Part shown: in pieces, positions 7,206 to 48,264 of the stretch
Layout of the letters: every line of letters begins with the position of its first letter
Position numbering within the stretch: position 1 is the stretch's first letter
Origin: Chloroflexota bacterium
Lineage (GTDB): Bacteria; Chloroflexota; Anaerolineae; JAAYZQ01
Assembly: GCA_018606645.1 (NCBI GenBank)
Contig: JAGVRI010000008.1
Coordinates: 68,036-132,035 of the forward strand
Direction of reading: 5' to 3'
DNA: 64,000 nt
Made by a program: the position numbers and the translations under genes
The notes under the pieces: generated by a model
What the model was told of the DNA's origin: nothing
The model's database searches: none
The model's input: the letters and a program-made list of their open reading frames with translations, nothing else

Positions 7206-7442
7206 GGACGAAAGGCTGCAAAATCGCTGGGGTTAAGGGTTACGGGGACTCTAGGGGGTTTTGATTCGCGCCCAGCGTGAGGGCAAGATGCCAACGTTAC
7301 GAGAGCCGATGGAAGAACTGCAGGAGAAGGCAGGTTTTCGCATTGGAGCGGATTTGTTTGCTGAGTTGCTGAGAGCGGCCGACGAAGAATGAGCGCCTGC
7401 CATTTTCTTAAATCGCGTGGGCTACATGGGGGATGGTGGCAG

Positions 7443-7580
7443 CGATTCAGGTCGTCGAGAAGCTGGTGGGCCGGCGGTCGCTGGTGGAATACCAGCGCCG
7501 TGGCATCCGGCGGATGTGAAGGATACCTGGGCGGAGATCGGCAAGGCGGAACCGGATGTTGGGCTGGTGGCGAGATCCGG
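7443..7580 (+). pseudogene. degenerate, frame-broken duplicate of the 3-prime end of the 5716..6717 epimerase gene
   Basis: about 90% nucleotide identity to 6503..6637 (tcgagaagctgg...ctggtggaataccagc...ggatacctgggcggagatcggcaaggcgga...) with small indels. Confidence 0.75.
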
Positions 7581-7622
7581 TTGAGACTTTTTGCGACGGG
7601 ACGAGTATGCTAGCTTCCACAA

Positions 7623-7651
7623 GTGACATGGATGATGTTGTGAGATAGAAT
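7623..7651 (+). promoter_or_regulatory. candidate sigma70-type promoter (GTGACA -17- TAGAAT) upstream of the GT4/wzx block
   Basis: hexamer spacing read directly; about 110 nt upstream of the 7764 start. Confidence 0.3.
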
Positions 7652-7763
7652 GGGGCGGTCAGTCAAGGTCAAGGGAACAGCAATCGCATACCTGCTCTCT
7701 GGAGGGTTCAGGTTCTTAAATGCGGCTGCTAGGAACAGGTTGGGTCAGGGAGATACAGCGTAG

Positions 7764-8936: not shown

Positions 8937-9046
8937 CTCTAACCGTTTAGCTCCCGAGAAGCTTGTTGCAGGCGGACAACAAGGATTATCCTTGCCCGAT
9001 GCAGAGCAGGAGAGTTTGAACTTTTAGAGGTCCTGAGCATTTCTCA

Positions 9047-10354: not shown

Positions 10355-10436
10355 ATACGGACCACAGCAATTCCACGTGGCTGCGGCAGGGCTGGTTGCC
10401 GGGCAACACCCGTAAGACAGCCTGTGGGGCTGGTGG

Positions 10437-11795: not shown

Positions 11796-11848
11796 GAGAA
11801 AACTGTTGAGCCCCGAAAGACGACAGTAACGATAATGGAGAGTTAACC

Positions 11849-26748: not shown

Positions 26749-27414
26749 GTGAGCATCCGGCAAATCGCCATTTATGGAGCTGGAGGATTCGCGCGGGAGG
26801 TGGCCTGGCTGGTTCAGGCCTGCAACGAGGGAGTTGAGAGATACCAGGTCGTTTGTTTCATTGATGATGACGTCGGAAAACATGGCACAATCCTCAACGG
26901 CATCCCCATTATGGGCCTGGAGCGCGCCCGCCAGCGATTCCCCGAAGCGCGGGTGGTCGGCGGTGTGGGCAGTCCCCAAACCCGCCAACTCCTCATGGAG
27001 AAGGCAGCCCGGGTTGGATTCGAGTTCGATACAATCATCCATCCCAGGGTGGAGCGGTCCGCCTGGATCGAAATCGGCGCGGGCACGGTGATCTGCGCCG
27101 GGAATATCTTGACCACCAACATTGTCCTGGGGCGACACGTACAGATCAATCTAGATTGCACCGTCGGCCATGATGTGATCATGGGGGATTATACCACGTT
27201 GGCTCCGGGAGTCCACGTGTCGGGATGCGTGCACCTGGGTCGGCGGGTTTATGTCGGCACTGGCGCGGTGATTATCAACGGCACGCTCGAGGAGCCGATC
27301 CGGATTGGCGATGATGCAGTGATCGGTGCTGGCGCGTGCGTGATCGGATCGGTACCGGCTGGCGTGACGGTGGTCGGGGTACCGGCGCGCCCGTTGCCGC
27401 GCTCCCAATCATGA
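26749..27414 (+). CDS. PglD/NeuD/WbpD-family sugar N-acetyltransferase (Rossmann-like N-domain + left-handed beta-helix)
   Basis: IAIYGAGGFAREVAWLV...VVCFIDDD N-domain plus hexapeptide repeats. Confidence 0.7.
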   Translation: MSIRQIAIYGAGGFAREVAWLVQACNEGVERYQVVCFIDDDVGKHGTILNGIPIMGLERARQRFPEARVVGGVGSPQTRQLLMEKAARVGFEFDTIIHPRVERSAWIEIGAGTVICAGNILTTNIVLGRHVQINLDCTVGHDVIMGDYTTLAPGVHVSGCVHLGRRVYVGTGAVIINGTLEEPIRIGDDAVIGAGACVIGSVPAGVTVVGVPARPLPRSQS

Positions 27415-28088
27415 GGGACGAGACGAAAGCGTTGATGAGTGAAGAACACAGACGTCTGGTGGTCTATGGCGCCGGCGGCCATGCCAAAGTGGTGCTGGCG
27501 ACGATCGAGGCCGAGGGAAAGTACCAGGTGGTCGGTGTGCTCGATTACAATCCGGCCAGGCATGGTCAACAGGTCTATGGCTATCCGGTGCTGGGGGGCT
27601 GGGAACAGCTCGAAACGCTGCAAAGTCAGAACGTCTATGCGGCGTTTGTGGCGATTGGCGATAACGAGCATCGGGCCCAAGTGGCTCGGCGATTGATTGA
27701 GCATGGATTCGAGTTGGTCACGGCGATCCACCCATCAGTTGTCCGCCTGCGGGGTTCGTGCATCGGTCCGGGGACGCTGGTCGCACCGTATGCATTCGTC
27801 GGGGGCGATTGCACCATCGGCGATGGGGTTATCATCAACACGGGCGCGGTGGTGGGGCACGATAGCAGGGTCGGTTCCTGGGTACACATCGGCGCGGGTG
27901 TGATTTTGGCCGGACAAGCCCGGGTCGGGGACTATTCGTTCCTGGGCATCAGCGCGTCTGTGTTGCCCGGAGTGACGGTGGGTCGGCGGGTCATAGTCGG
28001 GGCCCATGCCGTGGTCACCGAAGACCTTCCGGACGATGTCACCGCGGTCGGGGTGCGGGCGCGGATCATCAAACAGAGGTCGCCTTGA
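27411..28088 (+). CDS. second PglD/NeuD-family sugar N-acetyltransferase (tandem paralog)
   Basis: LVVYGAGGHAKVVLATIEAEGKYQVVGVLD.N plus hexapeptide repeats; ATGA overlap with previous gene if start is 27411. Confidence 0.7.
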   Translation: MRDETKALMSEEHRRLVVYGAGGHAKVVLATIEAEGKYQVVGVLDYNPARHGQQVYGYPVLGGWEQLETLQSQNVYAAFVAIGDNEHRAQVARRLIEHGFELVTAIHPSVVRLRGSCIGPGTLVAPYAFVGGDCTIGDGVIINTGAVVGHDSRVGSWVHIGAGVILAGQARVGDYSFLGISASVLPGVTVGRRVIVGAHAVVTEDLPDDVTAVGVRARIIKQRSP

Positions 28089-29308
28089 GTAGATCCCAGA
28101 TGTCCATTCCCATGTCGTCTCCAGACATCACCGCCGCTGAGATCGAGGCGGTCAACCAGGTCCTCCGCACCCCGTATTTGAGTATTGGCCCTCAACTGGA
28201 ACAGTTCGAGCGGGCAGTGGCTTCCTATGTGGGTGTGGCCCACGCCATCGGCGTCAATTCTGGCACGAGCGGTCTGCACCTGTGCATGATCGCGGCTGGG
28301 GTTTCTGCCGGCGATCTGGTCATTACGTCGCCTTTCTCGTTCGTGGCTTCGGCCAACTGCATCCTGTACGAACGGGCGATTCCGGTCTTTGTCGATGTGG
28401 ACCCGGTGACGGGCAATCTGAATCCGGTCAGTGCAGCGGAAGCGGCTCACGACCTGAATCAGGGAGGGCGGATGGCCAAGCGCTGGCTTCCCCGATCGAT
28501 GGCTGACGCTCCGCGCGGCAAGCTGAAAGCCATCCTGCCGGTGCACTCCTTCGGACAACCTGCAGATATGGCACCGATCCTGGAGACCGCCCGCCAGCGT
28601 GGGGTGATGGTCGTCGAGGATGCGTGCGAGGCTTTGGGGGCGGAGTACCGGGGGCAGAAGGCCGGCACTCTGGGCACGGCGGCGGTTTTTGCGTTCTACC
28701 CGAACAAGCAGATCACCACCGGCGAAGGGGGTATGGTTGTCACCGACAGTGACCAGTGGGCGGCTCTCTTGCGTTCGCTGCGCAATCAGGGGCGCGACGT
28801 GTTCGACGCCTGGCTGAACCACACGCGCCTCGGCTACAACTACCGGCTGGATGAGCTGAGTGCGGCCTTGGGACTGGTGCAAATGGGGCGCATTGAAGAA
28901 CTGCTGGCGAAGCGCGAACGGGTGGCCGGCTGGTACAACGAGCGCCTAGCCGACCTGGAGTGGATCGAGCGGCCGCCCATCGTATCCACCACAACGCGCA
29001 TGTCGTGGTTTGTGTATGTCATCCGGGTCAGGCCGCCGATCAGCCGTGACGAGGTCATGCGCCGGCTGGCCGAGGTTGGCATCCCCAGCCGGCCTTATTT
29101 TACGCCGATCCATCTCCAGCCTTTTTACCGTCAGCGGTTTGGCTATCAACGCGGTGATTTCCCCGTGACCGAGTATCTGGGCGATGTGTGCCTGGCCTTG
29201 CCGTTTTCAAGTGTGATGCAGGAAGAGCAGGTGGACCAGGTGTGCGACCGGTTGCGGGCTGCGGTGATGGCGGCTCTTGGCAGTGCGGCGCCTGGTTCTG
29301 CCCCGTAG
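28085..29308 (+). CDS. DegT/DnrJ/EryC1/StrS-family PLP-dependent nucleotide-sugar aminotransferase (PglE/WbpE-like)
   Basis: family-typical N-terminus (ITAAEIEAVNQVLRTPYLSIGPQLEQFERAVASYVGVAHAIGVNSGTSGLHL) and length. Confidence 0.8.
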   Translation: MSRSQMSIPMSSPDITAAEIEAVNQVLRTPYLSIGPQLEQFERAVASYVGVAHAIGVNSGTSGLHLCMIAAGVSAGDLVITSPFSFVASANCILYERAIPVFVDVDPVTGNLNPVSAAEAAHDLNQGGRMAKRWLPRSMADAPRGKLKAILPVHSFGQPADMAPILETARQRGVMVVEDACEALGAEYRGQKAGTLGTAAVFAFYPNKQITTGEGGMVVTDSDQWAALLRSLRNQGRDVFDAWLNHTRLGYNYRLDELSAALGLVQMGRIEELLAKRERVAGWYNERLADLEWIERPPIVSTTTRMSWFVYVIRVRPPISRDEVMRRLAEVGIPSRPYFTPIHLQPFYRQRFGYQRGDFPVTEYLGDVCLALPFSSVMQEEQVDQVCDRLRAAVMAALGSAAPGSAP

Positions 29309-29350
29309 CCGGGTTGGGGTCTCAGATTCTTATACGGTTCAAGTAGAACG

Positions 29351-31225
29351 ATGCTGGCTCTGCGCAACCGACACTTTTTTGTTATCGATCTGATCCTGCT
29401 ACCCGTCACTGCCGTGTTGGCCTTTGCGATACGGCTTGACGCCCGGGGGATGGAAAGGTATCTGTCGGCCATGGCGCTTTTTGTTGCTCTGGCCGTGCCG
29501 ATCAAGCTGATTATCTTCCGCTGGTTAGGGCTCTATCGGCGGTTCTGGCGCTTTGCCAGCGTGGATGAGCTGCTGCTGATTGCCATGGCGGTGGGCATGA
29601 GCCTGGTGATCATTTTGGCGCTCATCCTGGGGGTGATCGTGCCCTTTCAGTGGATCAAAGGCTTCCCCCGCTCTGTCCCGTTGATCGACGCCTTGCTGAC
29701 CTTCGGCGTGGTGGGCGGGCCGCGCTTTGCGGTGCGACTGGCCGAGAAGAGACATCAACAGGAAAGGCGTCGGAAATGGAAGGGGCCGGAAAAACGGGTG
29801 CTAGTCATGGGGGCCGGCAGCGCGGGGACGACCGTTGTCAAGGAGCTGCAGGCCAACCCTCACCTGGGATTGGTGCCCTTTGGATTTGTAGACGATGACC
29901 AGCAGAAGCACGGGGTCCAGATCCTGGGTCTGCCGGTCCTGGGGGGGAGGGAGCGCATCCCGGATTTGGCGCGGCGCTATCGTATCGATGAAGTGATCAT
30001 TGCCATGCCGGCCGCGCCGGGCGCGGTGGTGCGCGAGATCGTCAAGATCTGCCAGCAGGCCGGTGTTCAGGTTCGCACCGTTCCCGGTTTGTCCGAGATC
30101 CTCTCTGGTCGGGTCAGCATCAGTCAGGTGCGGAAGGTGGATGTCGAGGACCTGCTGCGTCGGGAGCCGGTACAAACCGATACTCTGGCGTCGGAGCGGA
30201 TGTTGCGCGACTGCCGGGTGTTGGTGACCGGGGCGGGAGGATCGATCGGAAGTGAACTATGCCGACAGATTGCTCGCTACCGCCCTGCCCTTCTCATCCT
30301 GGCCGGACATGGCGAGAATAGCATCTTTGCTATTGCGAATGAACTTCAGCGGCAGTGGCCCGAGTTCCCCATCCGCCGGGCCATTGTGGATATCCGCGAC
30401 TTCGACCGGCTAAGTCAAATCTATGAGACGTATCGGCCTCAAACAGTCTTTCATGCCGCAGCCCATAAACATGTCCCGTTAATGGAAGAGAATATCGCCG
30501 AGGCGATCACCAATAATGTGCAAGGAACAGCCAATCTCCTGCATCTGTCCGAACTCTATGGCGTGGAACGCTTTGTCCTCATCTCTACCGACAAGGCGGT
30601 GAACCCTTCCAGCGTCATGGGGGCAACGAAATGGCTGGCTGAACGGCTGGTCCAGGCGTCAGCGCGGCGGACCGGTTCCGCGTACGTCTCGGTGCGTTTT
30701 GGCAATGTGCTGGAAAGCCGGGGGAGTGTGGTGCTCCTCTTTCGGGAACAGATCGCCCGCGGAGGGCCGGTGACAGTAACTCATCCGGATGTGTGCCGCT
30801 ACTTTATGACTATACCTGAGGCGGTACAACTGGTCTTGCAGGCCGCGGCCCTGGGTCAGGGCGGCGAGGTCTTTGTCCTGGATATGGGGGAACCGATCCG
30901 GATTGCCGATCTGGCCCGGGACATGATCCACCTTTCCGGGTTGGAGGTGGGCCGGGATATCGAGATCGTGTATACCGGGCTGAGGCCGGGCGAAAAGCTG
31001 ATGGAGGAGCTGGTTGCACCGGGTGAACAGGTGGTGCCGACCTGTCACGACAAGATATTGTCCCTCAATGGGACCGGGGATTGGGGCACTGCGGAACTGG
31101 AGCAGGCGGTGCAGGGACTGATCCACCTGGCTCGCCACGGGGACGAAGGTCAAATCCGCGCTAAACTCCGGGAGCTGGTGCCGCATTACAAGCCCTGTCC
31201 CTCTGGGCCGGGAGGCCGGATGTGA
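29351..31225 (+). CDS. membrane-anchored UDP-GlcNAc 4,6-dehydratase (PglF/CapD/WbpM family)
   Basis: four N-terminal TM helices, then VLVMGAGSAGTTVVKEL and VLVTGAGGSIGSEL Rossmann motifs, 624 aa as for PglF/WbpM. Confidence 0.8.
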   Translation: MLALRNRHFFVIDLILLPVTAVLAFAIRLDARGMERYLSAMALFVALAVPIKLIIFRWLGLYRRFWRFASVDELLLIAMAVGMSLVIILALILGVIVPFQWIKGFPRSVPLIDALLTFGVVGGPRFAVRLAEKRHQQERRRKWKGPEKRVLVMGAGSAGTTVVKELQANPHLGLVPFGFVDDDQQKHGVQILGLPVLGGRERIPDLARRYRIDEVIIAMPAAPGAVVREIVKICQQAGVQVRTVPGLSEILSGRVSISQVRKVDVEDLLRREPVQTDTLASERMLRDCRVLVTGAGGSIGSELCRQIARYRPALLILAGHGENSIFAIANELQRQWPEFPIRRAIVDIRDFDRLSQIYETYRPQTVFHAAAHKHVPLMEENIAEAITNNVQGTANLLHLSELYGVERFVLISTDKAVNPSSVMGATKWLAERLVQASARRTGSAYVSVRFGNVLESRGSVVLLFREQIARGGPVTVTHPDVCRYFMTIPEAVQLVLQAAALGQGGEVFVLDMGEPIRIADLARDMIHLSGLEVGRDIEIVYTGLRPGEKLMEELVAPGEQVVPTCHDKILSLNGTGDWGTAELEQAVQGLIHLARHGDEGQIRAKLRELVPHYKPCPSGPGGRM

Positions 31226-32493: not shown

Positions 32494-32549
32494 CTTCCCG
32501 GGTCAGGTTGGCAGCGGCGGGTCGTCATATCCAAACGGAGAACGGATCA

Positions 32550-34253
32550 ATGGAACTTGTACAGTATTGGCACTTGGTGCGCAAATGGTTGTGGCTCATC
32601 GTCCTGGGGAGCGTTCTAGCTGGTGGTATGGCGTTTGTCGTCAGTCGAAACATGACGCCGGTCTATCAGGCCAACACGACTCTGCTGATCACGCCGGGCG
32701 GGGCGCAGGGGCTGGATAACTACACGAATCTCATGGCCAGCGAACGACTGGCCCGGACCTATGCACAATTGGTGGTCAGCCCCTCTATCCTGCAGCAGAC
32801 GTATCAGCGGGTAGCAGAAATCTGGGGCGCAGACGCAACTAACCGAAGACCACTCTCTGGCTTTTCGGTTTCCGCCGAACCGGTCCGGGACACCCAGCTC
32901 TTGCGCATCGCCGTCACCGGCACCGATCCGGAACTGATCGCCGTGGCAGCCAACACGGCGGCTCAGGTGTTCATCGAATGGCAGACCACGATCCGCAAGT
33001 CGCGGTATGCCGACGCCCAGGACAAGCTCACGGCCGAGATGCATCAGGTGGAGGCCAACATCCAGGAACTCGAAGCCCAGATCCAGGCGCTTGAGGCGGA
33101 AGAGAGTGAGGATAATGCGGAAACAGTGGCTCGCTTGCGGGAGGAACTGACCCGCTATCGCAGCAGTTACTCGGCCTTGCTGAACAGCTACTCCAGCCTC
33201 ACCCTGTCGGAAGCCAGTTCGGGGGATACGGTCACGGTCGTGTCGGAGGCGGTGCGACCGGCAGCGCCGATCCGTCCCCAGGTGATGCGGAACACGATAC
33301 TGGCGGCCATTGTCGGCGCCATGTTGGCCATCGGCGTGGCCTACCTGGTTGAGTACCTGGATGATACGGTCAAAACCCCTGATGACCTTCGGGTGGCCGA
33401 TCTGAATGTCGTCGCTGCGGTGCAGGAGATGCATCTCAATAGCAAAGGACCTGGCCGGGAACCGTTTGTCCTAAAGGAGCCGAAATCGCTCGTGGCCGAA
33501 GCGTATCGCACCCTCCGCACCAACCTGCAGTTCTCGTCCCTGGATCGTCCCTTGCGCAGCCTGGTGGTGACCAGCGCCGTAGCCACGGAGGGGAAAACGA
33601 CGACGGCTGCCAACTTGGCGGTGGTGCTGGCTCAGGCGGGCAAGCGGGTAGTGCTGGTGGACGCTGACCTGCGCCGTCCCTCTGCCCACAAGTTATTTGG
33701 CCTGTCCAATCGCGATGGACTGACCACGGCCCTGGTGCAGGACCCAGGCCAGTTGGATGGCTATCTGCAGGACACCCCAGTGGAGAACCTGCGGGTGTTG
33801 ACCTCGGGGCCGGTTCCGCCCAACCCCCAGGAACTGTTGGGGTCGCAGCGCATGGAGGAGCTGCTCCGCCAGCTCGAGCAGGCTTCTGACATTGTGCTGG
33901 TGGATACTCCACCCTCTCTGGTGGTTGCTGATGCCAACGTCTTGGCCGCTCGCACCGACGGGGTCTTGCTGGTGGTCAATGCCGGAACGACCCGCCGGGC
34001 GGCTATTCAGCAGGCGGTCGCCAGCCTGCGGCAGATCGGGGCCCACGTGGTGGGCGCTGTGCTCAACCGGGTGAATGTCCGGGGCGGCCGCGGGTACTAT
34101 TACTACTATTCCTACTACTCCCACTACTATCGTGACGAAGAGAAAGATGGCAGGCGCAATCTGATCGCTCGCCTGCGGCGTCGGAGGCCGCGTTCCACTC
34201 GCAGCGAATCGACCGAGGGTGTGCCGTCTGAGAGTCGGGAAAAGGAGGAGTAG
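32550..34253 (+). CDS. wzc: polysaccharide co-polymerase fused to BY-kinase (Wzc/PCP-2 family tyrosine autokinase)
   Basis: two TM segments around a coiled-coil periplasmic domain, Walker A VTSAVATEGKTTTAANLA, and C-terminal tyrosine cluster GGRGYYYYYSYYSHYY. Confidence 0.8.
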   Translation: MELVQYWHLVRKWLWLIVLGSVLAGGMAFVVSRNMTPVYQANTTLLITPGGAQGLDNYTNLMASERLARTYAQLVVSPSILQQTYQRVAEIWGADATNRRPLSGFSVSAEPVRDTQLLRIAVTGTDPELIAVAANTAAQVFIEWQTTIRKSRYADAQDKLTAEMHQVEANIQELEAQIQALEAEESEDNAETVARLREELTRYRSSYSALLNSYSSLTLSEASSGDTVTVVSEAVRPAAPIRPQVMRNTILAAIVGAMLAIGVAYLVEYLDDTVKTPDDLRVADLNVVAAVQEMHLNSKGPGREPFVLKEPKSLVAEAYRTLRTNLQFSSLDRPLRSLVVTSAVATEGKTTTAANLAVVLAQAGKRVVLVDADLRRPSAHKLFGLSNRDGLTTALVQDPGQLDGYLQDTPVENLRVLTSGPVPPNPQELLGSQRMEELLRQLEQASDIVLVDTPPSLVVADANVLAARTDGVLLVVNAGTTRRAAIQQAVASLRQIGAHVVGAVLNRVNVRGGRGYYYYYSYYSHYYRDEEKDGRRNLIARLRRRRPRSTRSESTEGVPSESREKEE

Positions 34254-34254
34254 C

Positions 34255-36750
34255 ATGGGCGAGGGGCATCCTCAATCCAGCCCCCGACTGCGAGCGGTTT
34301 TTCTTGTTCTTCTTCCCGTTTTGGTACTCGTCATTGGATTGTTACAAGTTCAGCGGGCTGCTGCGGCCGACCCGAACTGTCCGGTTCCTCTGACCGAGCG
34401 GCAACGATATGGATTTGTGGCGACGTCCGCCAACTGGCCACAGCAGTTCGACTATGCGTCTCTCAATGCCGGCTGGGTGGTGGACTTTGCCTATCGGACC
34501 TACAGTGGGCCCCCGCCCGGTCTCGATCGGGCGTTGGTCATCCGCATCCACGAGGGCTATCGGGTGGACCCGGCACGGTTGGGCCCGGTGGTGGATAGCA
34601 ACCCGGGCGTCATCTGGCTGATCGGCAACGAGCCGGACTGTGTCTGGCAGGACAACGTCCGGCCCGAGGAGTACGCCCGCATCTACCATGACCTCTATGC
34701 TTTTATCAAGAGCCGGGATGCAAGCGGCCAGGTGGCAGCCGGGGGCATTGTCCAGCCGACACCCCTGCGCCTGGAGTACCTGAACCGGGTCCTGGCCGCC
34801 TACCAGGCCCGCTACCGGCAGGCGATGCCGGTAGATGTATGGAACATCCACAATGCCATACTCAACGAGGTGAGTTGTGACTATGATCCCGGCAACTGTT
34901 GGGGGGCGGGGATTCCGCCGGGCATTGACGCTCCATTTGGCGAGGTCCGGTTGATCGACGACAATGACAATATGACCCTGTTCCGCAATCAGATCTGGGC
35001 CTTCCGCCAGTGGATGGCCGACCATGGCTATGGCAGCTACCCGCTGATCGTCACCGAATATGGGGTCCTGATGCCGGCGAGTTATGGCTTTGGTCCGAGC
35101 CGGGTGAACACCTTTATGAACAACACTTTTGCCTTTTTCCAGAACACGACCCATCCCAGCCTGGGCGATCCGACGGACGGTTGGCGGCTGGTGCAGCGCT
35201 GGGCTTGGTTCAGTCTGGATGTGCCGCCCTGGAATCCGATGACAGGGGGCTTTAACGGCAACCTCTTTGATCCGGATACGACCTCGAAAACGGTCTATGG
35301 ACTGAACTATAGCAACCAGACGGGCGCGTTTCCTCCGGTGGAATATGCAGATCTGGCGCTGGGCGCCTGGCGGGTGGGGCCCACGGTGGATCTGGCCGGC
35401 CCTGGCCAGCCCATCACCTGGACGGTTCAGATTCGGATCGTGAACCTGGGGACGGCCGATGCGGGAGGGTTTACCGTTCGTCTGACGTACACCGGCCCGG
35501 TGAGCGGTGTGCTGGAACAGACGATGTCCGGCCTGGCTCACTCTTCGGCGGCGTGGCGTACGTTTGTCCTGTCTGACCTGCCAATGGGCCGCTATGACCT
35601 CTCCCTGGAGATCGACGCCGCCGCTCAGGTGAACGAATCGCGGGAGTGCAACAACCAGGCGATGATGACGCTCATCGCGCCGCAGTTCCGCTATCAGCTT
35701 CCACTGGTCCCGAACCTGCGGACGGGGGCGTCGGTGCAAGGCGTCGCTTCCTCGGCGCCCGTTCGGGAGTCGGGGGTTCCATCTAAAACGACAGAGGCTG
35801 CCTCGGTGGAGCCCGGCTTTCGGGAGTTCCCGGTGCCGACTGCGGCCAGCTACCCCGGGCAGATCGCCATCGACGGCCAGGGCCGGGTATGGATCACGGA
35901 GCGGGATGCCAATCAGATCGCCCGCTTTGATCCCCAGAGCGAGACCTGGGTGGAATACCCCATCCCCACCGCCAACAGTCAGCCGTGGGGACTGGCTGCC
36001 GATGGGCAGGGCAACATCTGGTTCGCCGAGACGGCAGCAAATCAGATCGCCCGGCTGGTGGAAGCCAGCGGCGCGGTCACCGAATATCCGGTTCCCACGC
36101 CCAACAGTCAGCCGTGGGAGGTGGCCGTCAGTGGGAACGTGGTCTGGTTCACGGAAAAGGCGGGGAACCGGATCGGCAACCTGGTACCGGGCACGGGAGC
36201 CGTCACCGAATATCTGGTTCCGACCGCGAACGCCGAACCCCGCGGACTGGCGGTTTCGGGCAATGAGGTATGGTTTGTCGAGGGCGCGGCGAACAAGCTG
36301 GGCCGGTACAATATCAGTACCGGGCAATTCTTCGAGGTGGCCAGGCCAGCCGGCAGTCTCCCCCAGGACATTGTGTTAAATCCAGTCGGCCAACCCTGGT
36401 TCACCGAAGCGGGCGGGAATCGGATAGTCAAGTTCGAGCCGTCTACCGTTGGGTGGTGGATCGTCATCAACGCGGTGACGCCCAACAGCGAACCGTACGG
36501 CATCGCCATGGAAGGCAGCAAGGCGGTGTGGTTCACGGAACGTGCCGCGAATCGACTGGCGCGCTATGATGCTGCTCGCAACCGCATCTTTGAGTATGTG
36601 CTCCCCACGCCCAACAGCGCCCCGACCGGGGTGGTGGTGGACGGCAATGGTTGCGCCTGGTACGCTGCCCCCGGGGCCAATCGCATTGCTCGCCTGTGCC
36701 CCCCGCCGAACCGCTTCACCTATATCCCGGTGATCTACAAACGCTGGTAG
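34255..36750 (+). CDS. secreted multidomain protein: GH-clan-A-like (TIM-barrel glycoside hydrolase-like) domain + CARDB domain + seven Vgb-type beta-propeller repeats
   Basis: strong SD AAGGAGG 6 nt upstream of ATG 34255; signal peptide; IWLIGNEPD and LIVTEYG motifs about 135 residues apart (clan GH-A acid/base and nucleophile pattern); CARDB-like ...ESRECNN...; seven repeats of EYP.PT.NS.P.G.A....G.WF.E...N.I.R. Confidence 0.6.
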   Translation: MGEGHPQSSPRLRAVFLVLLPVLVLVIGLLQVQRAAAADPNCPVPLTERQRYGFVATSANWPQQFDYASLNAGWVVDFAYRTYSGPPPGLDRALVIRIHEGYRVDPARLGPVVDSNPGVIWLIGNEPDCVWQDNVRPEEYARIYHDLYAFIKSRDASGQVAAGGIVQPTPLRLEYLNRVLAAYQARYRQAMPVDVWNIHNAILNEVSCDYDPGNCWGAGIPPGIDAPFGEVRLIDDNDNMTLFRNQIWAFRQWMADHGYGSYPLIVTEYGVLMPASYGFGPSRVNTFMNNTFAFFQNTTHPSLGDPTDGWRLVQRWAWFSLDVPPWNPMTGGFNGNLFDPDTTSKTVYGLNYSNQTGAFPPVEYADLALGAWRVGPTVDLAGPGQPITWTVQIRIVNLGTADAGGFTVRLTYTGPVSGVLEQTMSGLAHSSAAWRTFVLSDLPMGRYDLSLEIDAAAQVNESRECNNQAMMTLIAPQFRYQLPLVPNLRTGASVQGVASSAPVRESGVPSKTTEAASVEPGFREFPVPTAASYPGQIAIDGQGRVWITERDANQIARFDPQSETWVEYPIPTANSQPWGLAADGQGNIWFAETAANQIARLVEASGAVTEYPVPTPNSQPWEVAVSGNVVWFTEKAGNRIGNLVPGTGAVTEYLVPTANAEPRGLAVSGNEVWFVEGAANKLGRYNISTGQFFEVARPAGSLPQDIVLNPVGQPWFTEAGGNRIVKFEPSTVGWWIVINAVTPNSEPYGIAMEGSKAVWFTERAANRLARYDAARNRIFEYVLPTPNSAPTGVVVDGNGCAWYAAPGANRIARLCPPPNRFTYIPVIYKRW

Positions 36751-36758
36751 AGCCTGGT

Positions 36759-38111
36759 GTGAGTCCTCAGACCCCTCGTCCGATCGAGCGCAAGAGCGCT
36801 CCCCCTTGGCTGGTCTGGCTGGAGATCGGAATGGTCTCCTTGGCCGCCCCGTTTTTGCTCTTCCCGACCTTCCAACGGCGTGGGACGGTCACCGCTCTGG
36901 CTGCCCTAATCCTGGTCTGGATGTTCCGATGGTTGGTCACCGGCCGGCCCGGCGCCCCGACTCCTTTGGATGTCTCGCTGCTGGTGTTGAGCCTGACGAT
37001 TCCCATTGCCGTCTGGGCCTCGGCCTTGCCAGAAGTGACCCTTCCCAAACTGACCGGCCTGATCCTGGGGCTGGCCGTCTTGCGGCTGACCACTGCCGCC
37101 GTGCGCACGCGGCGCGGTCTGACAGGTGCGACGGCTGCCTTTCTGGTCGTTGGTCTGGGGGTGGCGATATTCGGGGCGCTGGCTACGGCATGGCCAGACA
37201 AGTGGCGGGCGGTGGAATTCTTGCTGAATGCTCTCCCGCAATGGTTGCAAGGCCTGCCGGGTGCTGAAGCGGGCATCAACCCCAACGAGTTGGCCGGCGC
37301 GTTGATCATGGTGATACCGGTGTCATTGGCAATGCTTGTGGCGCCGACGGCCGGACATCCATGGCGCGGTTGGGCGGTGCGCCTCCTGGGATTGTTCCTT
37401 TCGCTGTTCCTGGGTGTCTTGCTTTTCCTCACTCAATCGCGCAGTGCCTGGATTGGCCTGGCCGTGGGGTTGGCGACGATGATCGGCCTCCGCTGGCGCT
37501 GGGCGCGCATTCTGCTTGCGGGTGCACTCGCGGCGGTGGTCCTCATCCTGTGGCGGCTGGGACCTGAATCGGTTATGCAAAGGCTCTTTCAGGTGGTGAA
37601 TCAGAGCGAAATCGGGGGACTGGTCGGCACAGTCAGCCTTGAGGGACGGATGGAGATATGGAACCGGGCGCTATATGCCATCCAGGACTTTCCGTTCACC
37701 GGCACGGGGTTGGGGACCTTTCGCCAGGTGGTACGAGTGCTATATCCTCTGTTTCTGATCGGTCCGGATTTTGACATCGGCCATGCCCACAATGTGTTCC
37801 TGCAAGTGGCGCTGGACCTGGGGCTGCCGGGGCTGATCGCCTATCTGGCGCTGGTAGGGACGGCCGGATGGTTCTGCTGGCGGGCCGCGCAGTCTGCAAG
37901 GAGCCCGGACCGATGGCTGGCCGTTGGCGTACTGGGTTCTCTGGCCGCGTTCCACACCTACGGAATGACCGATGCCATTGCTCTGGGCGCCAAGCCGGGC
38001 GTGGTCTTTTGGTTGCTGGTGGCCCTGGCCGTGCTTCTGGGGACGATCGGCCAGAGAGCAGAAACGGATTCACACGAAACCATGACATCGGCTGAGGCAG
38101 CAGACGGATGA
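36759..38111 (+). CDS. O-antigen ligase/polymerase-family membrane protein (Wzy_C domain)
   Basis: polytopic; LFLTQSRSAWIGLAVGLATM block typical of the Wzy_C/O-antigen ligase domain; start approximate (GTG 36759 or downstream ATG). Confidence 0.6.
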   Translation: MSPQTPRPIERKSAPPWLVWLEIGMVSLAAPFLLFPTFQRRGTVTALAALILVWMFRWLVTGRPGAPTPLDVSLLVLSLTIPIAVWASALPEVTLPKLTGLILGLAVLRLTTAAVRTRRGLTGATAAFLVVGLGVAIFGALATAWPDKWRAVEFLLNALPQWLQGLPGAEAGINPNELAGALIMVIPVSLAMLVAPTAGHPWRGWAVRLLGLFLSLFLGVLLFLTQSRSAWIGLAVGLATMIGLRWRWARILLAGALAAVVLILWRLGPESVMQRLFQVVNQSEIGGLVGTVSLEGRMEIWNRALYAIQDFPFTGTGLGTFRQVVRVLYPLFLIGPDFDIGHAHNVFLQVALDLGLPGLIAYLALVGTAGWFCWRAAQSARSPDRWLAVGVLGSLAAFHTYGMTDAIALGAKPGVVFWLLVALAVLLGTIGQRAETDSHETMTSAEAADG

Positions 38112-40453
38112 TCGACGGGTGGGGCGTTTTCAGCCAGGCACTGTGGATTATCGGCCTGGCGGTCAATCTGGCGGTAATCAGCACGGCGAACTATCAGGCC
38201 CAGGTGGAGCGGGTTCGCTTGCGACAGAAACTGGGCGAAGCTGGGTTCCAGCTTGGGATCAACCTGGGCATGGTTCTGTTTTGCGTGGGACTGCTTCTTG
38301 CCGGACGTTCCTGGTGGGAGAAGGCGCTGTGGGGCCTGGTGGGCGTGTCATTTTTGGCCCAGTTGCTCTGGGTCGGGCGCGTAAGGTTCTTGGCCTCCTC
38401 ACGCGCCGTACTTCGAGAGGAAGCGTCCCAACCCGAACCTTCAGCCGAAACCGCGAAACCGCGCTCAGGGGGACCGCGCCGCTGGCTGGGCATGGTATTC
38501 CTGGTGGCAGGGGTGTTGATCCTGCTGGGCTGGCTGGTGGTGACCAGTGTCCAGGTGTTTCAGCATACCCTCTCGCTCCGTGCCCATCTCCAATCGTTGG
38601 AAAGGGTCGCGCGGGGCAACATCAGCCGGTTAGGGCCGGCTGAATGGAAAGAGGCTGGAGGCCATCTGACCGGGATGCGCCAGGACCTGGAGGCCTTGGA
38701 TGCTCAGCTAGGGCCTTTTCTGCCGCTGGGACGTTTCCTGGGCTGGGTACCGACCTATGGAGGGGACCTGGCGGCAGCTCCTGATCTCCTGGACTTGGCG
38801 GTGGCGATGGTCAGCGCCGGGGACCGGACATTCCGTGCTCTGGCGCCGGCTCTGGACCTTCTTGCTGGCGAGGAATCCGGTACGGACGCCGGGGCAGCAA
38901 TAACCGAGCGCTTGCTTTCGATATTGGAGACGGCGCAACCGGAGTTGCAGGCGGCGCAGCAAGAGCTGGCGATGGCCCAGGAACTGCGGTCCCGTCTTGA
39001 CCGGAACCGGTTGTCCCCCCAAGTGGCTGGATTGCTCGATCGGTTGGATCGCTATGGGCCATGGTTCGAGACGGCCGTGCAGGGGGCAAGCCTGGCCCCG
39101 GGCCTGTTGGGGGCGGAAGAAGCACGAACCTATCTCATCCTGGCCCAAAACAACCAGGAATTACGGGCTACTGGCGGCTTTATCAGCGGGGTGGGTGAAC
39201 TCAGAATTCGGAAAGGGCGTTTGGAATCGTTGACGTTCAGCGATAGTTACGCGGTGGACAACCTGGCGGTGCCCCATGATCTGACTCCGGTTGATTTTCA
39301 GCGGACTCTGTTCGGACAGTTGTGGTTTTTCCGGGACACGAACTGGGATCCGGATTTTCGCACTTCGGCCCGGCGCGCCCTGGAAGTCTATGCCCGGGAC
39401 CGGGGGGTGCGGGCTGATGGCGTCATCGCTCTGGATCTGACCGCCCTCCAACGCCTGGTGAAGGCGGTGGGTCCGCTCCAGGTGGAAGGCATTGCCGAAC
39501 CGGTGACCGGTCAGAATCTGCTCCAGGTGCTCCGCCAGGAATGGGGCCGGTCGTCGGCCGAAGAGGGGCAAGAATGGCGTGAGTGGTGGCTGCATCGCAA
39601 AGATTTTATGGGTCCTATCGCTCGGGCGCTGATGGAAAGGCTCACAACAGGTCGAGGCTTGCAAGCAGCAGCCTTGATCCCAGCCTTGATCCAGATTCTG
39701 GAGGAGAAACATCTGCTGATCTATATGGCTGATCCTGAGGTGGCCGAGTTGCTGCGCGCCAGAAACTGGGATGGAGCGTTGGTAGCCCCGCCTGCATCGG
39801 ATGCCTTGTTGGTGGTAGATACGAATGTCGGTTTCAACAAAGTGGATGTCAACATTGAGCGCTCGATTCATTACCAGGTGGATTTGACGACTCCAGAGAA
39901 CCCCCGGGCGCAACTGGTTCTGACCTACCAGAACCAAAGCCGCCGCGTGGCGGAGGCGTGTATCCAGGAAGCGCGGTATGGCCGTACCTACGCCGACATG
40001 ACCGAGCGCTGCTACTGGGACTATGTTCGAGTGTATGTGCCCGCGGGTAGTCAGCTTGTATCGGGACCGCCACCCGCCCTGCCGGCCGGCAGCCTGTTGG
40101 CTCGCAGCGGCGAGGCCTACCCTCAGCCGCCGATCAGTCCGACGCTCCAGGCTGACGATTGGGAGGTATGGACGGTGTTCTTTGCCCTGGAGCCGCTGGG
40201 GCAGCAGACGTGGACGTTTGTGTATGACTTGCCGCCTGATGTGTTGGATTATAGTCCCGATGGGTCGGTTCGCTACCGACTTTGGGTTTTCAAACAACCC
40301 GGCACGGGAGCCGCGCCGCTTGAGGTAGAGCTCGTGCTGCCAGCGAATAGCAAAGTGGTGAGTGCATCGCCCAAGGATCTGCCTGTGATCTCCACCGATT
40401 TGAAGGTGGACCGCACGTTCGAGCTTCTGTTTCGAAGGGAGACCCGTCCATGA
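38108..40453 (+). CDS. large membrane-anchored extracytoplasmic protein, uncharacterized (possibly DUF4012 family)
   Basis: N-terminal TM helices then about 600 soluble residues; motif LILAQNNQELRATGGFISGVGE recalled as DUF4012-like but not verifiable here; ATGA overlap with upstream ligase gene. Confidence 0.45.
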   Translation: MIDGWGVFSQALWIIGLAVNLAVISTANYQAQVERVRLRQKLGEAGFQLGINLGMVLFCVGLLLAGRSWWEKALWGLVGVSFLAQLLWVGRVRFLASSRAVLREEASQPEPSAETAKPRSGGPRRWLGMVFLVAGVLILLGWLVVTSVQVFQHTLSLRAHLQSLERVARGNISRLGPAEWKEAGGHLTGMRQDLEALDAQLGPFLPLGRFLGWVPTYGGDLAAAPDLLDLAVAMVSAGDRTFRALAPALDLLAGEESGTDAGAAITERLLSILETAQPELQAAQQELAMAQELRSRLDRNRLSPQVAGLLDRLDRYGPWFETAVQGASLAPGLLGAEEARTYLILAQNNQELRATGGFISGVGELRIRKGRLESLTFSDSYAVDNLAVPHDLTPVDFQRTLFGQLWFFRDTNWDPDFRTSARRALEVYARDRGVRADGVIALDLTALQRLVKAVGPLQVEGIAEPVTGQNLLQVLRQEWGRSSAEEGQEWREWWLHRKDFMGPIARALMERLTTGRGLQAAALIPALIQILEEKHLLIYMADPEVAELLRARNWDGALVAPPASDALLVVDTNVGFNKVDVNIERSIHYQVDLTTPENPRAQLVLTYQNQSRRVAEACIQEARYGRTYADMTERCYWDYVRVYVPAGSQLVSGPPPALPAGSLLARSGEAYPQPPISPTLQADDWEVWTVFFALEPLGQQTWTFVYDLPPDVLDYSPDGSVRYRLWVFKQPGTGAAPLEVELVLPANSKVVSASPKDLPVISTDLKVDRTFELLFRRETRP

Positions 40454-41082
40454 AGCGGAGAGATGACCGATGGACCTGGATCGTGGCCCTGGCCGGGATG
40501 CTGATCATCCGGTTACTCGCCGGGGGTGGGGGAAGCGATCTGACCGTCCAGGCTGACCGTCCGAACCAGACGATCCCGACTCCAACCACGCCGGCTCCCC
40601 CGGTTGCCTCACCGACGCCCAAAGCTACATTCACCTCTGTGCCCACGGAACCGCCGGTCACGCCTCGGCCGGCGACCGAAACAGCACCGGCACTTGATAC
40701 TCTTACGCCGACGGCGATGCCGGTTTCGCCGTCACCCACCGCCACTGCCCCGGTCCCCGGCACCCCATCTCCATCGGTGACTGTTCCCGGACCGACGGAG
40801 ACACCGACTGCCACCTCTGAACCAGAACAGAAACCCGTTTCGGTCAGTCCCACTTCCCCGATACCACCATCGGCCCCGGCATTAAGCGTCACCCCAGAAC
40901 TGGCGCAACCCACTCCGGTTGCCTCCAGGGAGGTCGCGCCGACTCCGGAGGCCACTGCACCGACGCCTCCTGCTGCGGAGGCTCGATCCGGATGGTGGTC
41001 CTGGCCGTACCTGTGGATCGCCGTGGGTTTGATCTTGATCGGCGCCGGATTGGTCATGCTGGTGCGACGGCGAAGCTCATGA
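40450..41082 (+). CDS. Pro/Thr/Ser-rich low-complexity protein with N- and C-terminal TM segments
   Basis: PTPTTPAPPVASPTPKATFTSVPTEPPVTPRP... linker flanked by hydrophobic segments; ATGA overlaps on both sides. Confidence 0.45.
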   Translation: MKRRDDRWTWIVALAGMLIIRLLAGGGGSDLTVQADRPNQTIPTPTTPAPPVASPTPKATFTSVPTEPPVTPRPATETAPALDTLTPTAMPVSPSPTATAPVPGTPSPSVTVPGPTETPTATSEPEQKPVSVSPTSPIPPSAPALSVTPELAQPTPVASREVAPTPEATAPTPPAAEARSGWWSWPYLWIAVGLILIGAGLVMLVRRRSS

Positions 41083-42395
41083 CCATTGGTTCGCCCTCCC
41101 GTCGATCGGCGATGCTGGCGTTAACGCTGGTGATCGTGGGGGCGGTTCTGATCGGATGGAGTCTGGTCCGCCTGTGGCCCCACGTCGTTCCTCAATCCGG
41201 CCCGGCAGTCACCGTGTCGCCCACCGTTCCACCTGCGACGGCTACCGAGCCGATCCTGCCTCCTGCCCCCACGGGGCTGTCCCTCGCTACTCAGGAGCGG
41301 CCCATCCACGCCACCCCCTCCCCTCGCTTCCAGACTGCGTCCCCGACGGCAACCGCTGTGGTAGGAGCCGGGCTCTCCCCGACACCGTCGGTGGGTCCGG
41401 GGCCGGTCACGCTGGCGCCATCCTCCAGCTTTACTCCGTCCTCTGTGCCTTCGGCGACGCCAGTACCAGTGTCAAAGGGGCTGTATTCCTTGCGACAGCG
41501 ATTGGGCGTTGGCGCCTCGAGTCGGCGCGTGACACAGGAGGTCGCCCGCGAACTGGAGTTCGGTTGGTACCTGGACTGGACGGCTCGGGCCGACGCGTTT
41601 CGGTCGCCTGAGGTGGAATATCTGCCCATGATCCGGATCAAGAACGGCCAGCCGCATCTGAAGGGGGACGCCCTGCGCCAGGCGGTGAAGGCTCTGCCTG
41701 GAGCGGTATGGCTGATTGGCAATGAACCGGATGTCAAATGGCAGGATAACGTCCCGCCAGAGGTGTATGCCCAGGTCTATCATGATCTGTACGACCAGCT
41801 CAAAGTCCTCGATCCCGCCTGTCAGGTGGCCATCGGCGGCGTGTCGCAGCCAACCCCTCTGCGGATGCGGTACCTGAACCTGATTCTGGAGGCGTACCAG
41901 AGCCAGTACGGCGAGCCCATGCCGGTGGACGTGTGGAACGTGCACAACTTTATCTTGCGTGAAGAACGGGATAGTTGGGGGGTGGACATTCCCCCGGGCC
42001 TGACCGAGCAGACTGGCATCCTGTATGAAATCACCGATCACGATGACCTGACCATCTTCCGTCAGCAGATCGTCGAGTTTCGGAAGTGGATGCGGGACCG
42101 AGGCCAGCAAGATAAACCCCTTATCGTCAGTGAGTACGGGATTCTCATGCCCAATGAGTATGGATTTCCCGCGCGCCGAGTCGAGCAGTTTATGGTGGAC
42201 ACCTTTGAGTTCTTTCGCACAGCGGTCGATCCCGCGTTGGGTTATGCCGCCGACGGGTATCGACTGGTGCAACGTTGGTGCTGGTTCAGTCTGGCCGATC
42301 CCCGCTATCCAACCGGCAACCTCGTCCAACTGGAGAGTGGACAACTGACCCCCCTCGGCAAAGCATTTCGATCCTACGCTGAGTCCCCCCACTAA
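41079..42395 (+). CDS. membrane-anchored GH-clan-A-like protein, paralog of the N-terminal domain of 34255..36750
   Basis: AVWLIGNEPDVKWQDNVPPEVYAQVYHDLYDQLK..QVAIGGVSQPTPLRMRYLN..MPVDVWNVHNFIL..KPLIVSEYGILMP aligns block-for-block with the 34255 protein; N-terminal TM + P/S/T linker. Confidence 0.6.
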   Translation: MTIGSPSRRSAMLALTLVIVGAVLIGWSLVRLWPHVVPQSGPAVTVSPTVPPATATEPILPPAPTGLSLATQERPIHATPSPRFQTASPTATAVVGAGLSPTPSVGPGPVTLAPSSSFTPSSVPSATPVPVSKGLYSLRQRLGVGASSRRVTQEVARELEFGWYLDWTARADAFRSPEVEYLPMIRIKNGQPHLKGDALRQAVKALPGAVWLIGNEPDVKWQDNVPPEVYAQVYHDLYDQLKVLDPACQVAIGGVSQPTPLRMRYLNLILEAYQSQYGEPMPVDVWNVHNFILREERDSWGVDIPPGLTEQTGILYEITDHDDLTIFRQQIVEFRKWMRDRGQQDKPLIVSEYGILMPNEYGFPARRVEQFMVDTFEFFRTAVDPALGYAADGYRLVQRWCWFSLADPRYPTGNLVQLESGQLTPLGKAFRSYAESPH

Positions 42396-46858: not shown

Positions 46859-48264
46859 AGCATAGAGCGAATCTCTTGTTCACCGTGTTGCTGGTACTCA
46901 ACGACGCGGCCATGGTCGTTGTCGCTTTCTACCTGGCCTATTGGCTGCGTCGCGTGGTGCCCGTGCCTCCAGCCATCAATATTGCACCCTTTGCGAATTA
47001 TGCCACGATGGTGATCATCCAGGTCATTGTCATGATCACCGTCTACTTTTTCTCCCGCCTGTACGACTTGAAACGGACCATGCCCCGGCTGGATGAATTC
47101 TACCGCCTCTTCGCGGTGACTTCGGTGGGCACCCTCATCACCGTGGCCCTTACCGCGATCCTGTTCAAGAACAGCACGCTCGAACTGGACTTTCCTCGGG
47201 TGATGATCATTTATGCCTGGCTTCTCACGGTGTTCCTGGTTGCCCTTGGTCGGTCCGTGCTGGTGATGGTGCGGAATTGGCTCCGCCGACGAGGGATATG
47301 GACAGACCGGCTGCTGATCGTAGGGACCGGGGATGTGGGACGGATGATCTTGCAAAAGGTTCGGCAGATGCCGCAGTTGGGCTATCAGGCCATCGGCTTT
47401 GTGGACGGGGAGCTTCCTTCGGGTCAGGAGATCATGGGCGTACCGGTGTTAGGCACGGTGGAGGATATCCCGGATCTGATCAAAGCTCACGGCATTCAGG
47501 AGGTAATCATTGGCCGTCCCGAGCTGAGCCATGAGGAACTGCTGGACATCATCGCCCGTTGTGAACGAGGCCAGGTAGGGATCAAGATCTTCCCGGATCT
47601 ATTCCAGATCATTGCCACCGAGCTCAGCATCGGGGACCTGGGCGGGTTACCGTTGCTCAGTGTACGGGATGTCGCTCTGCGGGGTTGGAAGCTAACGCTT
47701 AAGCGGGCGGTGGATCTGGTGGGCAGCGCGGTGCTGTTGGTGCTGCTTTCGCCGTTCCTGATGCTGGTGGCACTGGCTATCAAGCTGGATTCGCGAGGGC
47801 CCGTCTTCTACGCCCAGGAGCGAATGGGTCTGGATGCCAAACCGTTCTGGTGCCTGAAATTTCGCTCGATGCACACCGAGGCTGAGAAAGACGGACCCGG
47901 TTGGACCGTCGAGCAAGATCCGCGCGTGACGCGCCTGGGCCGGTTCATCCGTCGCTTTTCAATTGATGAGCTGCCGCAACTGATCAATGTGCTGTTAGGG
48001 GAAATGAGCCTGGTGGGTCCACGGCCTGAGCGACCGGTCTACGTCGAGCAATTCCGGCGCAGCATCCCTCGCTACATGGACCGCCACCGTGAAAAAGCGG
48101 GCATGACCGGCTGGGCGCAGGTGAATGGGCTTCGAGGGGACACGTCTATCGCCGAGCGAACCAAGTATGATCTATGGTATATTGAGAACTGGTCGCTCTG
48201 GCTTGATTTCAAGATCATGCTTCGGACTCTTTTGCGTATCTTTGGCGATCGTCACGCTTATTGA
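46855..48264 (+). CDS. full-length polyprenyl-phosphate hexose-1-phosphate transferase (WbaP/WcaJ/EpsL family initiating enzyme)
   Basis: N-terminal TM block, central Rossmann-like domain, C-terminal sugar-transferase domain with [24 protein letters not shown] and GWAQVNG. Confidence 0.8.
   Translation: MKHRANLLFTVLLVLNDAAMVVVAFYLAYWLRRVVPVPPAINIAPFANYATMVIIQVIVMITVYFFSRLYDLKRTMPRLDEFYRLFAVTSVGTLITVALTAILFKNSTLELDFPRVMIIYAWLLTVFLVALGRSVLVMVRNWLRRRGIWTDRLLIVGTGDVGRMILQKVRQMPQLGYQAIGFVDGELPSGQEIMGVPVLGTVEDIPDLIKAHGIQEVIIGRPELSHEELLDIIARCERGQVGIKIFPDLFQIIATELSIGDLGGLPLLSVRDVALRGWKLTLKRAVDLVGSAVLLVLLSPFLMLVALAIKLDSRGPVFYAQERMGLDAKPFWCLKFRSMHTEAEKDGPGWTVEQDPRVTRLGRFIRRFSIDELPQLINVLLGEMSLVGPRPERPVYVEQFRRSIPRYMDRHREKAGMTGWAQVNGLRGDTSIAERTKYDLWYIENWSLWLDFKIMLRTLLRIFGDRHAY

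Follow-up and report, generated by a model that had tools for sequence, protein, structure and literature searches.

The 64,000-nucleotide window analyzed here (the whole stretch from position 68,036 to 132,035 of contig JAGVRI010000008.1, assembly GCA_018606645.1, from a Chloroflexota bacterium of the Anaerolineae) carries, within a polysaccharide cluster, a gene for an 831-residue protein in which a clan GH-A glycoside hydrolase (GH) barrel, a CARDB domain and a seven-bladed propeller of the virginiamycin B lyase (Vgb) type are fused. This fusion is one arrangement of a Chloroflexota-wide set that consists of a propeller, a GH5-like protein and a GH128-like barrel with CARDB. The three-module protein is probably a retaining glycanase or transglycosylase that acts on an exported polymer, with a non-catalytic propeller of Vgb descent that would guide or anchor it.

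The proteins of the window were compared by tblastn with 42 non-duplicate related loci of at least 15 kb, 38 of which contain at least one glycan-assembly marker; four homolog loci, at 50-52% identity, lie in comparable glycan clusters. A Vgb-like propeller is encoded within 10 kb of the barrel gene at 27 of the 42 loci, where it is fused to the barrel in 7 cases and separate in 20. Given that propeller and barrel are found either fused or as neighbors, the two are taken to be functionally linked. In the split form, the order on the same strand is fixed: a stand-alone propeller (about 350-430 residues) is followed by a GH5-like protein (about 440-530 residues) and then by the GH128-like protein with CARDB. 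This arrangement was found, among others, at loci L017, L018, L023, L027, L028, L030, L031, L034-L037, L042, L047 and L048 as well as L053, L054, L061, L065 and L078, with the gene set at approximately positions 6000-14000 in each. The trio is often preceded by a Wzt-type ATP-binding cassette (ABC) ATPase and then followed by a weakly PMT-like membrane protein (Pfam searches on L028 and L031). Like the fusion, the split trio is embedded in glycan-assembly clusters. The neighboring pathways are of the Wzy type as well as the ABC type, and the set is therefore likely to work outside the membrane, once export has taken place. The GH5-like family keeps the N-E-P motif, the β6 His, the T-E motif and the β8 Trp, and this partner, judged by these residues, also looks catalytically competent. 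At two fused loci (L001 and L002), the GH5-like gene directly follows the fusion gene. No full homolog of it was detected in the 64-kb window, and its place may be taken there by an in-cluster paralog of the barrel (40992-42395). We do not propose that the fusion arose by mere read-through between neighboring genes: the propeller gene lies two genes upstream of the GH128-like gene in the split loci, so that a rearrangement is needed. Together, the split and fused forms tie a Vgb-type propeller to glycosidases, which would add to the functions known for propellers of this family.

The earlier note on this DNA had called the fusion unprecedented-looking; the database searches contradict this, and the barrel-CARDB-propeller architecture is common in Chloroflexota. 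Among 924 relatives of the 831-residue protein, at least 70 near-full-length cluster representatives (at least 93% query coverage, 49-78% identity) share its length and domain set, and many further relatives are short forms of 460-530 residues that contain the barrel and CARDB only. The few near-full-length relatives that bear organism names come from metagenome-assembled genomes of Anaerolineae. The barrel is encoded at 318 loci (one genome per species), and among the 80 of these that were listed, nearly all belong to Chloroflexota (Anaerolineae, Ardenticatenaceae, Thermoflexia and Ca. Leptofilum). Literature searches retrieved no paper on this architecture and nothing relevant on Vgb propellers with polysaccharides or on streptogramin lyase in Chloroflexi. 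For most of the full-length homologs (P0003-P0068), automatic annotation has assigned names of the kind 'streptogramin lyase' or 'virginiamycin B lyase'.

For the barrel, two alignments were used: A1, with 44 sequences (the N-terminal segment of the query, 42 short homologs and the window paralog), and A2, with 68 long-form homologs. The AlphaFold model of residues 38-480 built from A1 has a predicted local distance difference test score (pLDDT) of 90.6 and a predicted template-modeling score (pTM) of 0.83; in the full-length model, the barrel strands span residues 52-55, 74-78, 91-96, 120-123, 159-166, 195-199, 264-269 and 315-318. The '4/7' hallmarks of clan GH-A are all present in this model, namely a (β/α)8 fold, N125-E126-P127 after strand β4 and E268 at the end of β7, in agreement with the clan assignment proposed earlier. 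The catalytic-type NEP and TEY motifs on which that proposal was built are there, but their two Glu residues lie 142 positions apart, not about 135. E126, E268, H199, W316 and W318 are invariant across all 44 short-form and 68 long-form sequences.

The family assignment is less straightforward. With the Pfam model PF11790 (Glyco_hydro_cc; cutoff 21 bits), the whole protein reaches 20.8 bits and the N-terminal segment by itself 22.1 bits; 38 of the 44 A1 sequences match this model at E ≤ 1e-3. A profile of the N-terminal segment family, searched against all PDB sequences, matched CARDB domains only and no glycosidase, so that the assignment draws on the fold together with a borderline Pfam score. 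For the same reason, sequence and model point to a deeply branching lineage, be it a highly diverged GH128 or a sister family, that could eventually be classed as a GH128 subgroup or family of its own. The structures closest to the barrel model are β-1,3-glucanases, followed by GH39 at 19.4-19.5, with PslG at 17.3. In the GH128 enzyme CBM6E, the -1 subsite is formed by N167, E168, H245, Y247 and E272 (PMC10956234); compared by sequence position only, the present barrel has equivalents of the Asn, of both Glu and of the His. The CARDB domain, also called in the earlier note, is well supported: PF07705 scores 33.8 bits against a cutoff of 22.7, 43 of the 44 A1 sequences match it, and the profile search recovered PDB 2l0d (4e-10), 3idu and 2kl6.

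The C-terminal module is separated from CARDB by a linker that varies in both length and sequence; the segment aligned to residues 468-522 ranges from 42 to 101 residues across homologs. Residues 480-517 and 821-831 are modeled as disordered, the whole-protein pTM is 0.59, and the full-length model predicts no fixed interface between barrel and propeller. The seven tandem Vgb-type repeats noticed earlier map to blades of 42-44 residues each (524-566, 567-609, 610-651, 652-693, 694-737, 738-779 and 780-816), with core Trp residues at 546, 589, 631, 673, 715, 759 and 802. The Pfam model Vgb_lyase (PF24684) matches at 2.1e-60 (204 bits against a cutoff of 50), Vgb sequences in the PDB match at an E-value of 1e-50 with 30-34% identity, and Foldseek superimposes the propeller on Vgb (2z2n) with a TM-score of 0.93 over 300 residues. 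The next structural neighbors are designed Pizza proteins, the PknD sensor domain and the NHL domains of TRIM71, and no polysaccharide lyase occurs among the top 50. The SGL model of Pfam also exceeds its cutoff (47 bits against 26.3; 2.6e-12), underneath the far stronger Vgb_lyase match. The three-module anatomy is thus borne out by Pfam, the models and Foldseek; both the barrel and the propeller fold, either of which domain searches could have rejected, were recovered, and the domain matches are not due to chance.

The fate of the Vgb active site was followed in a blade-registered MAFFT alignment of two Vgb sequences and 68 family propellers, in which the blades pair from 1-1 through 7-7. 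The catalytic and Mg2+-binding residues of Vgb, reportedly His228, Glu268, His270 and Glu284 (Korczynska et al., 2007), are all replaced. H228 corresponds to Y748 in the query (Y in 55, F in 11 and V in 2 family members), E268 to A789 (variable), H270 to T791 (T in 68 of 68) and E284 to P806 (P in 65 of 68); Y18 of Vgb likewise aligns with G535, where the family has A, G or V. For PDB entry 2z2p, an H270A variant of the wild-type protein, the description states that catalytic activity is lost; among the four residues, this supports the role of H270 alone. Because these positions are substituted family-wide, the propeller is predicted to be unable to use the Vgb mechanism; naming these proteins 'streptogramin lyase', as the databases do, is consequently a mistake, and nothing here supports a role as a lyase. 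When the 68 fused propellers are compared with 26 stand-alone ones, conservation in both groups is confined to the scaffold residues of each blade (P, W, F, G and I), likewise present in Vgb, and no shared constellation of polar residues was found. The blade position that holds Y18, H228 and H270 in Vgb is occupied, from blade 1 to blade 7, by A/G, W578 (100%), W621 (87%), S/R, Q704 (62%), Y748 (81%) and T791 (100%). Such aromatic and uncharged residues seem to fit a binding face, possibly for sugars, better than a metal-dependent active site. The propeller is most likely a non-catalytic module, given that the Mg2+/His site of Vgb has been lost, and the lyase, lactonase or esterase activity that the earlier note had considered for it finds no support in these comparisons.

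The three partner proteins share a short motif, approximately [YF]-[LF]-P-[LV]-[VI]-x-[RK] (YLPLVxR), in their disordered tails. The pattern lies within the last 16 residues in 65 of 68 long forms and is also C-terminal in 39 of the 44 members of the short-form alignment and in nearly all stand-alone propellers, against a background rate of 1.1% per 14-residue window; in the GH5-like partners, it is located just after the signal peptide. Long forms keep, in addition, an internal copy right after CARDB and before the variable linker. Because the motif is retained both internally and at the C-terminus, the long form resembles an entire short form to which an entire propeller protein has been attached through a linker. 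Outside the window, the motif was found in the stand-alone propellers, GH5-like proteins and GH128-like proteins of L015-L082. In related loci, it is also found at the end of a Peptidase C25 protein and of two cohesin-domain proteins whose linkers are rich in Pro and Thr; the positions concerned are L019 17215-20106 (minus strand), L063 756-1913 and L074 732-2366. Searches of the NCBIfam sorting models and of the literature gave no match for the motif. An LPXTG/sortase signal was considered and rejected, as the motif is followed by neither a hydrophobic segment nor a basic tail and also occurs N-terminally. A sortase gene is nevertheless present at L001 (8882-9670, minus strand), directly upstream of and divergent from the fusion homolog P0031, and may or may not be related to the LP-containing tail motif. 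The motif may represent a sorting, anchoring or docking tag of Chloroflexota and, as such, may point to a protein-sorting or docking system that has not been described in this phylum.

Under the interpretation that we favor, the protein would be secreted or surface-tethered and would serve as a processing enzyme of its Anaerolineae polysaccharide cluster. The barrel would cleave or transglycosylate the cluster's own polymer outside the membrane, a role comparable to that of PslG, by retaining double displacement with Glu126 as the acid/base and Glu268 as the nucleophile. CARDB would pack on the barrel as a spacer or support, the flexible linker would tether the propeller to the barrel-CARDB part, and the propeller would act as a binding or targeting module whose partner could be a glycan or a component of the cell envelope. 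While the folds, the conservation or loss of catalytic residues, the synteny and the split and fused forms are shown by the analysis, the substrate, the choice between hydrolysis and transglycosylation and the binding role of the propeller are inferred. This agrees with the earlier note on the barrel, the glycan cluster and the analogy to PslG and departs from it on the novelty of the fusion and on the lyase or lactonase propeller. If correct, the protein is a candidate enzyme for trimming or remodeling the surface polysaccharide of filamentous Anaerolineae, whose envelope and matrix biology is almost unknown and which are important for the structure of flocs and biofilms in wastewater and sediments. 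A bolder proposition, which is possible although we advance it only tentatively, is that the propeller, the GH5-like and the GH128-like-CARDB proteins form a new, Chloroflexota-specific module for extracellular glycan remodeling at Wzy- and ABC-type export, with the dead propeller as a new carbohydrate-binding or docking module and YLPLVxR as a new phylum-specific sorting, anchoring or docking signal.

Several observations weigh against a glycanase dedicated to the product of its own cluster and guided by an inert propeller. GH128 enzymes act on β-1,3-glucans, and the product of this cluster is not necessarily of that type. In the β6 H-x-Y motif known from GH128, the Tyr is apparently replaced by Ala201, two positions after H199 (by sequence position, not structural alignment). 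Since ABC-transporter pathways of the Wzt type are also found next to the gene set, its target may be a common envelope glycan instead of the polymer of this one cluster. Within the fused subfamily, moreover, blades 6-7 are strongly conserved, at E746 (91%), Y748 (or F), T791 (100%), D796 (96%), Y803 (98%), P806 (96%) and C800/C815 (100%); this is the region of the Vgb active site and may, from the sequences, hold a different catalytic site.

This last point leads to the possibility of a bifunctional enzyme, in which the propeller would contribute catalysis of its own, for instance as a lactonase, an esterase/deacylase or a polysaccharide lyase, through a new blade 6-7 site in place of the His/Glu/Mg2+ site of Vgb. 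The blade 6-7 conservation favors it, as do the binding of substrate and Mg2+ by Vgb on these same blades (PMC8916777) and the above-cutoff match to the lactonase-type SGL model. We nevertheless consider it unlikely, since no His/Asp/Glu constellation is common to the fused and stand-alone propellers, polysaccharide lyases are missing from the top 50 structural neighbors and the SGL match lies beneath the much stronger Vgb_lyase one. In propeller lactonases, Ca2+ or another metal is held by E/N/N/D ligands (PMC13578688); no conserved set of this SMP-30/gluconolactonase type was seen in the sequence comparison at the blade entry positions, and obvious conserved counterparts are lacking at the strand-A entries, where the present propeller has G/Q, W, W, R/S, Q, Y and T. 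The propeller fold alone has, in any case, no predictive value for function (PMC13578688). The identity suggested by the automatic annotations, a genuine streptogramin B (virginiamycin B) resistance lyase, has in its favor those names and the strong sequence and structural matches to Vgb. It is ruled out, with next to no residual probability, by the missing catalytic residues, among them the invariant Thr in place of H270, whose mutation to Ala is enough to inactivate Vgb, and by the NCBIfam Vgb(A) and Vgb(B) models, which give 147 and 144 bits where the cutoffs are 600; a secreted, glycosidase-fused protein inside a glycan cluster is also at odds with it. Full-length homologs named as lyases are thus likely to give rise to spurious calls of antibiotic resistance in metagenomic data, and resistome surveys that counted these dozens of database proteins as resistance genes would be wrong.

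Rather than a polymer made by the cell, the barrel could attack exogenous β-glucan as food, in which case the protein would be a β-1,3-glucanase of GH128-like type, equipped with binding modules, that lies in the cluster only by coincidence. The nearest structures are indeed β-1,3-glucanases, a hydrolase with binding modules is a typical degradative architecture, and cohesin-domain proteins are encoded near some relatives. However, glycan-assembly genes remain neighbors of the gene even where protein identity has dropped to 50% and in different Chloroflexota classes, the gene is tightly packed between those for Wzz/BY-kinase and Wzy, no sugar-uptake or catabolic genes flank it within the window, and identity to GH128 is only 17-20%, so that a nutritional role appears quite improbable. 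We give equally little weight to a scaffolding role, under which the propeller and the YLPLVxR tags would assemble the propeller, GH5-like and GH128-like proteins into an extracellular multi-enzyme complex, or anchor them to the envelope, and glycan binding would not be the main task of the propeller. The placement of one motif at the C-terminus of the propellers and GH128-like-CARDB proteins, behind the signal peptide of the GH5-like proteins and inside the fusion is consistent with such a role, and NHL/Vgb-type propellers, including the PknD and TRIM71 neighbors, are common platforms for binding proteins and ligands; yet the motif also ends unrelated secreted proteins (the Peptidase C25 and cohesin-domain proteins), which favors a general sorting or anchoring tag over a propeller-specific ligand.

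The reading frame of the three-module gene opens with ATG at 34255 and closes with the stop codon at 36748-36750 on the plus strand; a single base separates the ATG from the stop codon of the upstream Wzz/BY-kinase gene (34251-34253). The length of 843 residues given in the earlier note is that of the open reading frame (ORF) from a GTG at 34219, which clashes with the start coordinate of the same note; the strong Shine-Dalgarno sequence it described is in place before the ATG. The signal peptide it proposed is also plausible: by eye, the N-terminus combines R11 and R13 with a 17-residue hydrophobic stretch (14-30) and AAA at 35-37, and residues 11-36 form a helix in the full-length AlphaFold model, so that a signal peptide or signal anchor is probable. 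The coordinates of these and the other features are collected in the table.

Features of the three-module gene and of the surrounding cluster (nucleotide positions in the window; residue numbers refer to the 831-residue protein)
Feature	Position	Strand	Basis or remark
Three-module coding sequence, 831 residues	34255..36750	+	ORF list; identical sequence is a called protein in public data
Shine-Dalgarno sequence AAGGAGG	34242..34248	+	6 nt 5' of ATG; within 3' end of Wzz/BY-kinase gene; read from sequence
Probable Sec signal peptide or N-terminal membrane anchor, residues 1-37	34255..34365	+	By eye and AlphaFold helix
Clan GH-A (β/α)8 barrel, closest to GH128/Pfam Glyco_hydro_cc, residues ~44-360	34384..35334	+	
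GNEPD, residues 124-128	34624..34638	+	Glu126 predicted acid/base, directly after β4 (120-123)
VTEYG, residues 266-270	35050..35064	+	Glu268 predicted nucleophile, C-terminal end of β7 (264-269)
CARDB Ig-like β-sandwich, residues ~365-476	35347..35682	+	Pfam PF07705 4.2e-8; PDB profile matches
Internal motif copy QLPLVPN, residues 481-487	35695..35715	+	L482 and P483 at least 90% conserved; modeled as disordered
Disordered variable linker, residues 488-517	35716..35805	+	pLDDT below 50
Seven-bladed Vgb/NHL-type β-propeller, residues 518-816	35806..36702	+	Pfam, PDB sequence match, Foldseek, blade map
C-terminal motif copy YIPVIYK, residues 823-829	36721..36741	+	P825 invariant; L824 position (Ile in query) at least 90% conserved
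Wzz/GNVR chain-length regulator with bacterial tyrosine (BY)-kinase-type P-loop ATPase, Tyr-rich tail	32508..34253	+	Pfam, translation; upstream neighbor
Wzy_C (O-antigen polymerase/ligase family) membrane protein	36651..38111	+	PF04932 2.4e-23; downstream neighbor
DUF4012 protein	38108..40453	+	Pfam; next in order after Wzy_C
GH128-like paralog: membrane anchor, Pro/Thr-rich stalk, barrel	40992..42395	+	BLASTP 4e-82; PF11790 1.9e-8, 34.6 bits
Wzx-type flippase	9047-10354		
PglF/E/D-like set: two PglD-like acetyltransferases, DegT-type aminotransferase, Polysacc_synt_2 dehydratase	26749-31225	+	
1,577-residue hybrid sensor kinase: four GAF, PAS, HisKA/HATPase, two receiver domains	48258-52994	-	Adjoins cluster end, convergent

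The polysaccharide cluster, as delineated by Pfam, extends over approximately 40 kb of the window, and the earlier placement of the gene in a glycan operon agrees with its position between the Wzz/BY-kinase and Wzy genes and with the Wzx, glycosyltransferase (GT) and Pgl-like genes in the same cluster. In addition to five GT4 and two GT2 glycosyltransferases and two phosphoglycosyl transferases, the cluster encodes CapE/FnlA-like enzymes and a 2-epimerase. The PglF/E/D-like set resembles a route to a 2,4-diacetamido-trideoxyhexose of the bacillosamine type and, as far as its sequence goes, hints at the chemistry of the polymer. The true start of the Wzy_C gene probably lies near 36831. DUF4012 proteins co-occur at 20 of the 42 related loci, and the literature search returned only passing mentions of this family. 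The paralog encoded at 40992-42395 is 47% identical to the fusion barrel over 289 residues and keeps GNEPD and SEYG, with neither CARDB nor a propeller; its listed start overlaps a 210-residue ORF (40450-41082) without a Pfam match. Between positions 8000 and 18000, which include the Wzx gene and GT4/GT2 genes, the guanine-plus-cytosine (GC) content falls to 50-54%, compared with about 58-64% on the flanks, a pattern typical of a horizontally exchanged, serotype-variable core; two ORFs in this low-GC core (12798-14105 and 14148-15704) have no Pfam match. The hybrid sensor kinase next to the cluster end could be its regulator.

Among characterized systems, the GH128 β-1,3-glucanases (PDB 6uax, 6uay, 6uav, 6uaq and 8j3x) share the fold of the barrel at a sequence identity of only 17-20%; the present barrel is about 100 residues larger, has a conserved β6-α6 insertion (residues 200-233, WGAGIPPGID) and lies in a biosynthetic genomic context. 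CylK, in which a Ca2+-binding domain is joined to a Vgb-like propeller, is a precedent for a fusion in which the polar active-site residues of Vgb have been replaced (PMC8916777). CylK, however, is an alkylating enzyme that forms C-C bonds in the biosynthesis of natural products and has its active site at the domain interface, whereas the present propeller is predicted to sit on a disordered linker with no such interface. Vgb itself (PDB 2z2n, 2z2o, 2z2p and 2qc5) has the same seven blades and the same repeat (…EYxLPTxxSxPxGI…WFTExxxNxIGR…) but is a stand-alone cytoplasmic protein; the present propeller appears to be secreted, is fused to or co-operonic with glycosidases and, unlike Vgb, has an invariant Cys800-Cys815 pair. 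As non-catalytic modules, the PLL and PHL lectins of Photorhabdus, seven-bladed propellers that bind sugars through blade-by-blade aromatic residues, offer an analogy that is functional only. For the protein as a whole, the closest functional parallel is PslG, which trims Psl. PslG (PDB 4zn2) is GH39-like and has no propeller; like hydrolases of the PslG type, the three-module protein is encoded within its assembly cluster and is conserved with it, as seen from the markers at 38 of the 42 loci.

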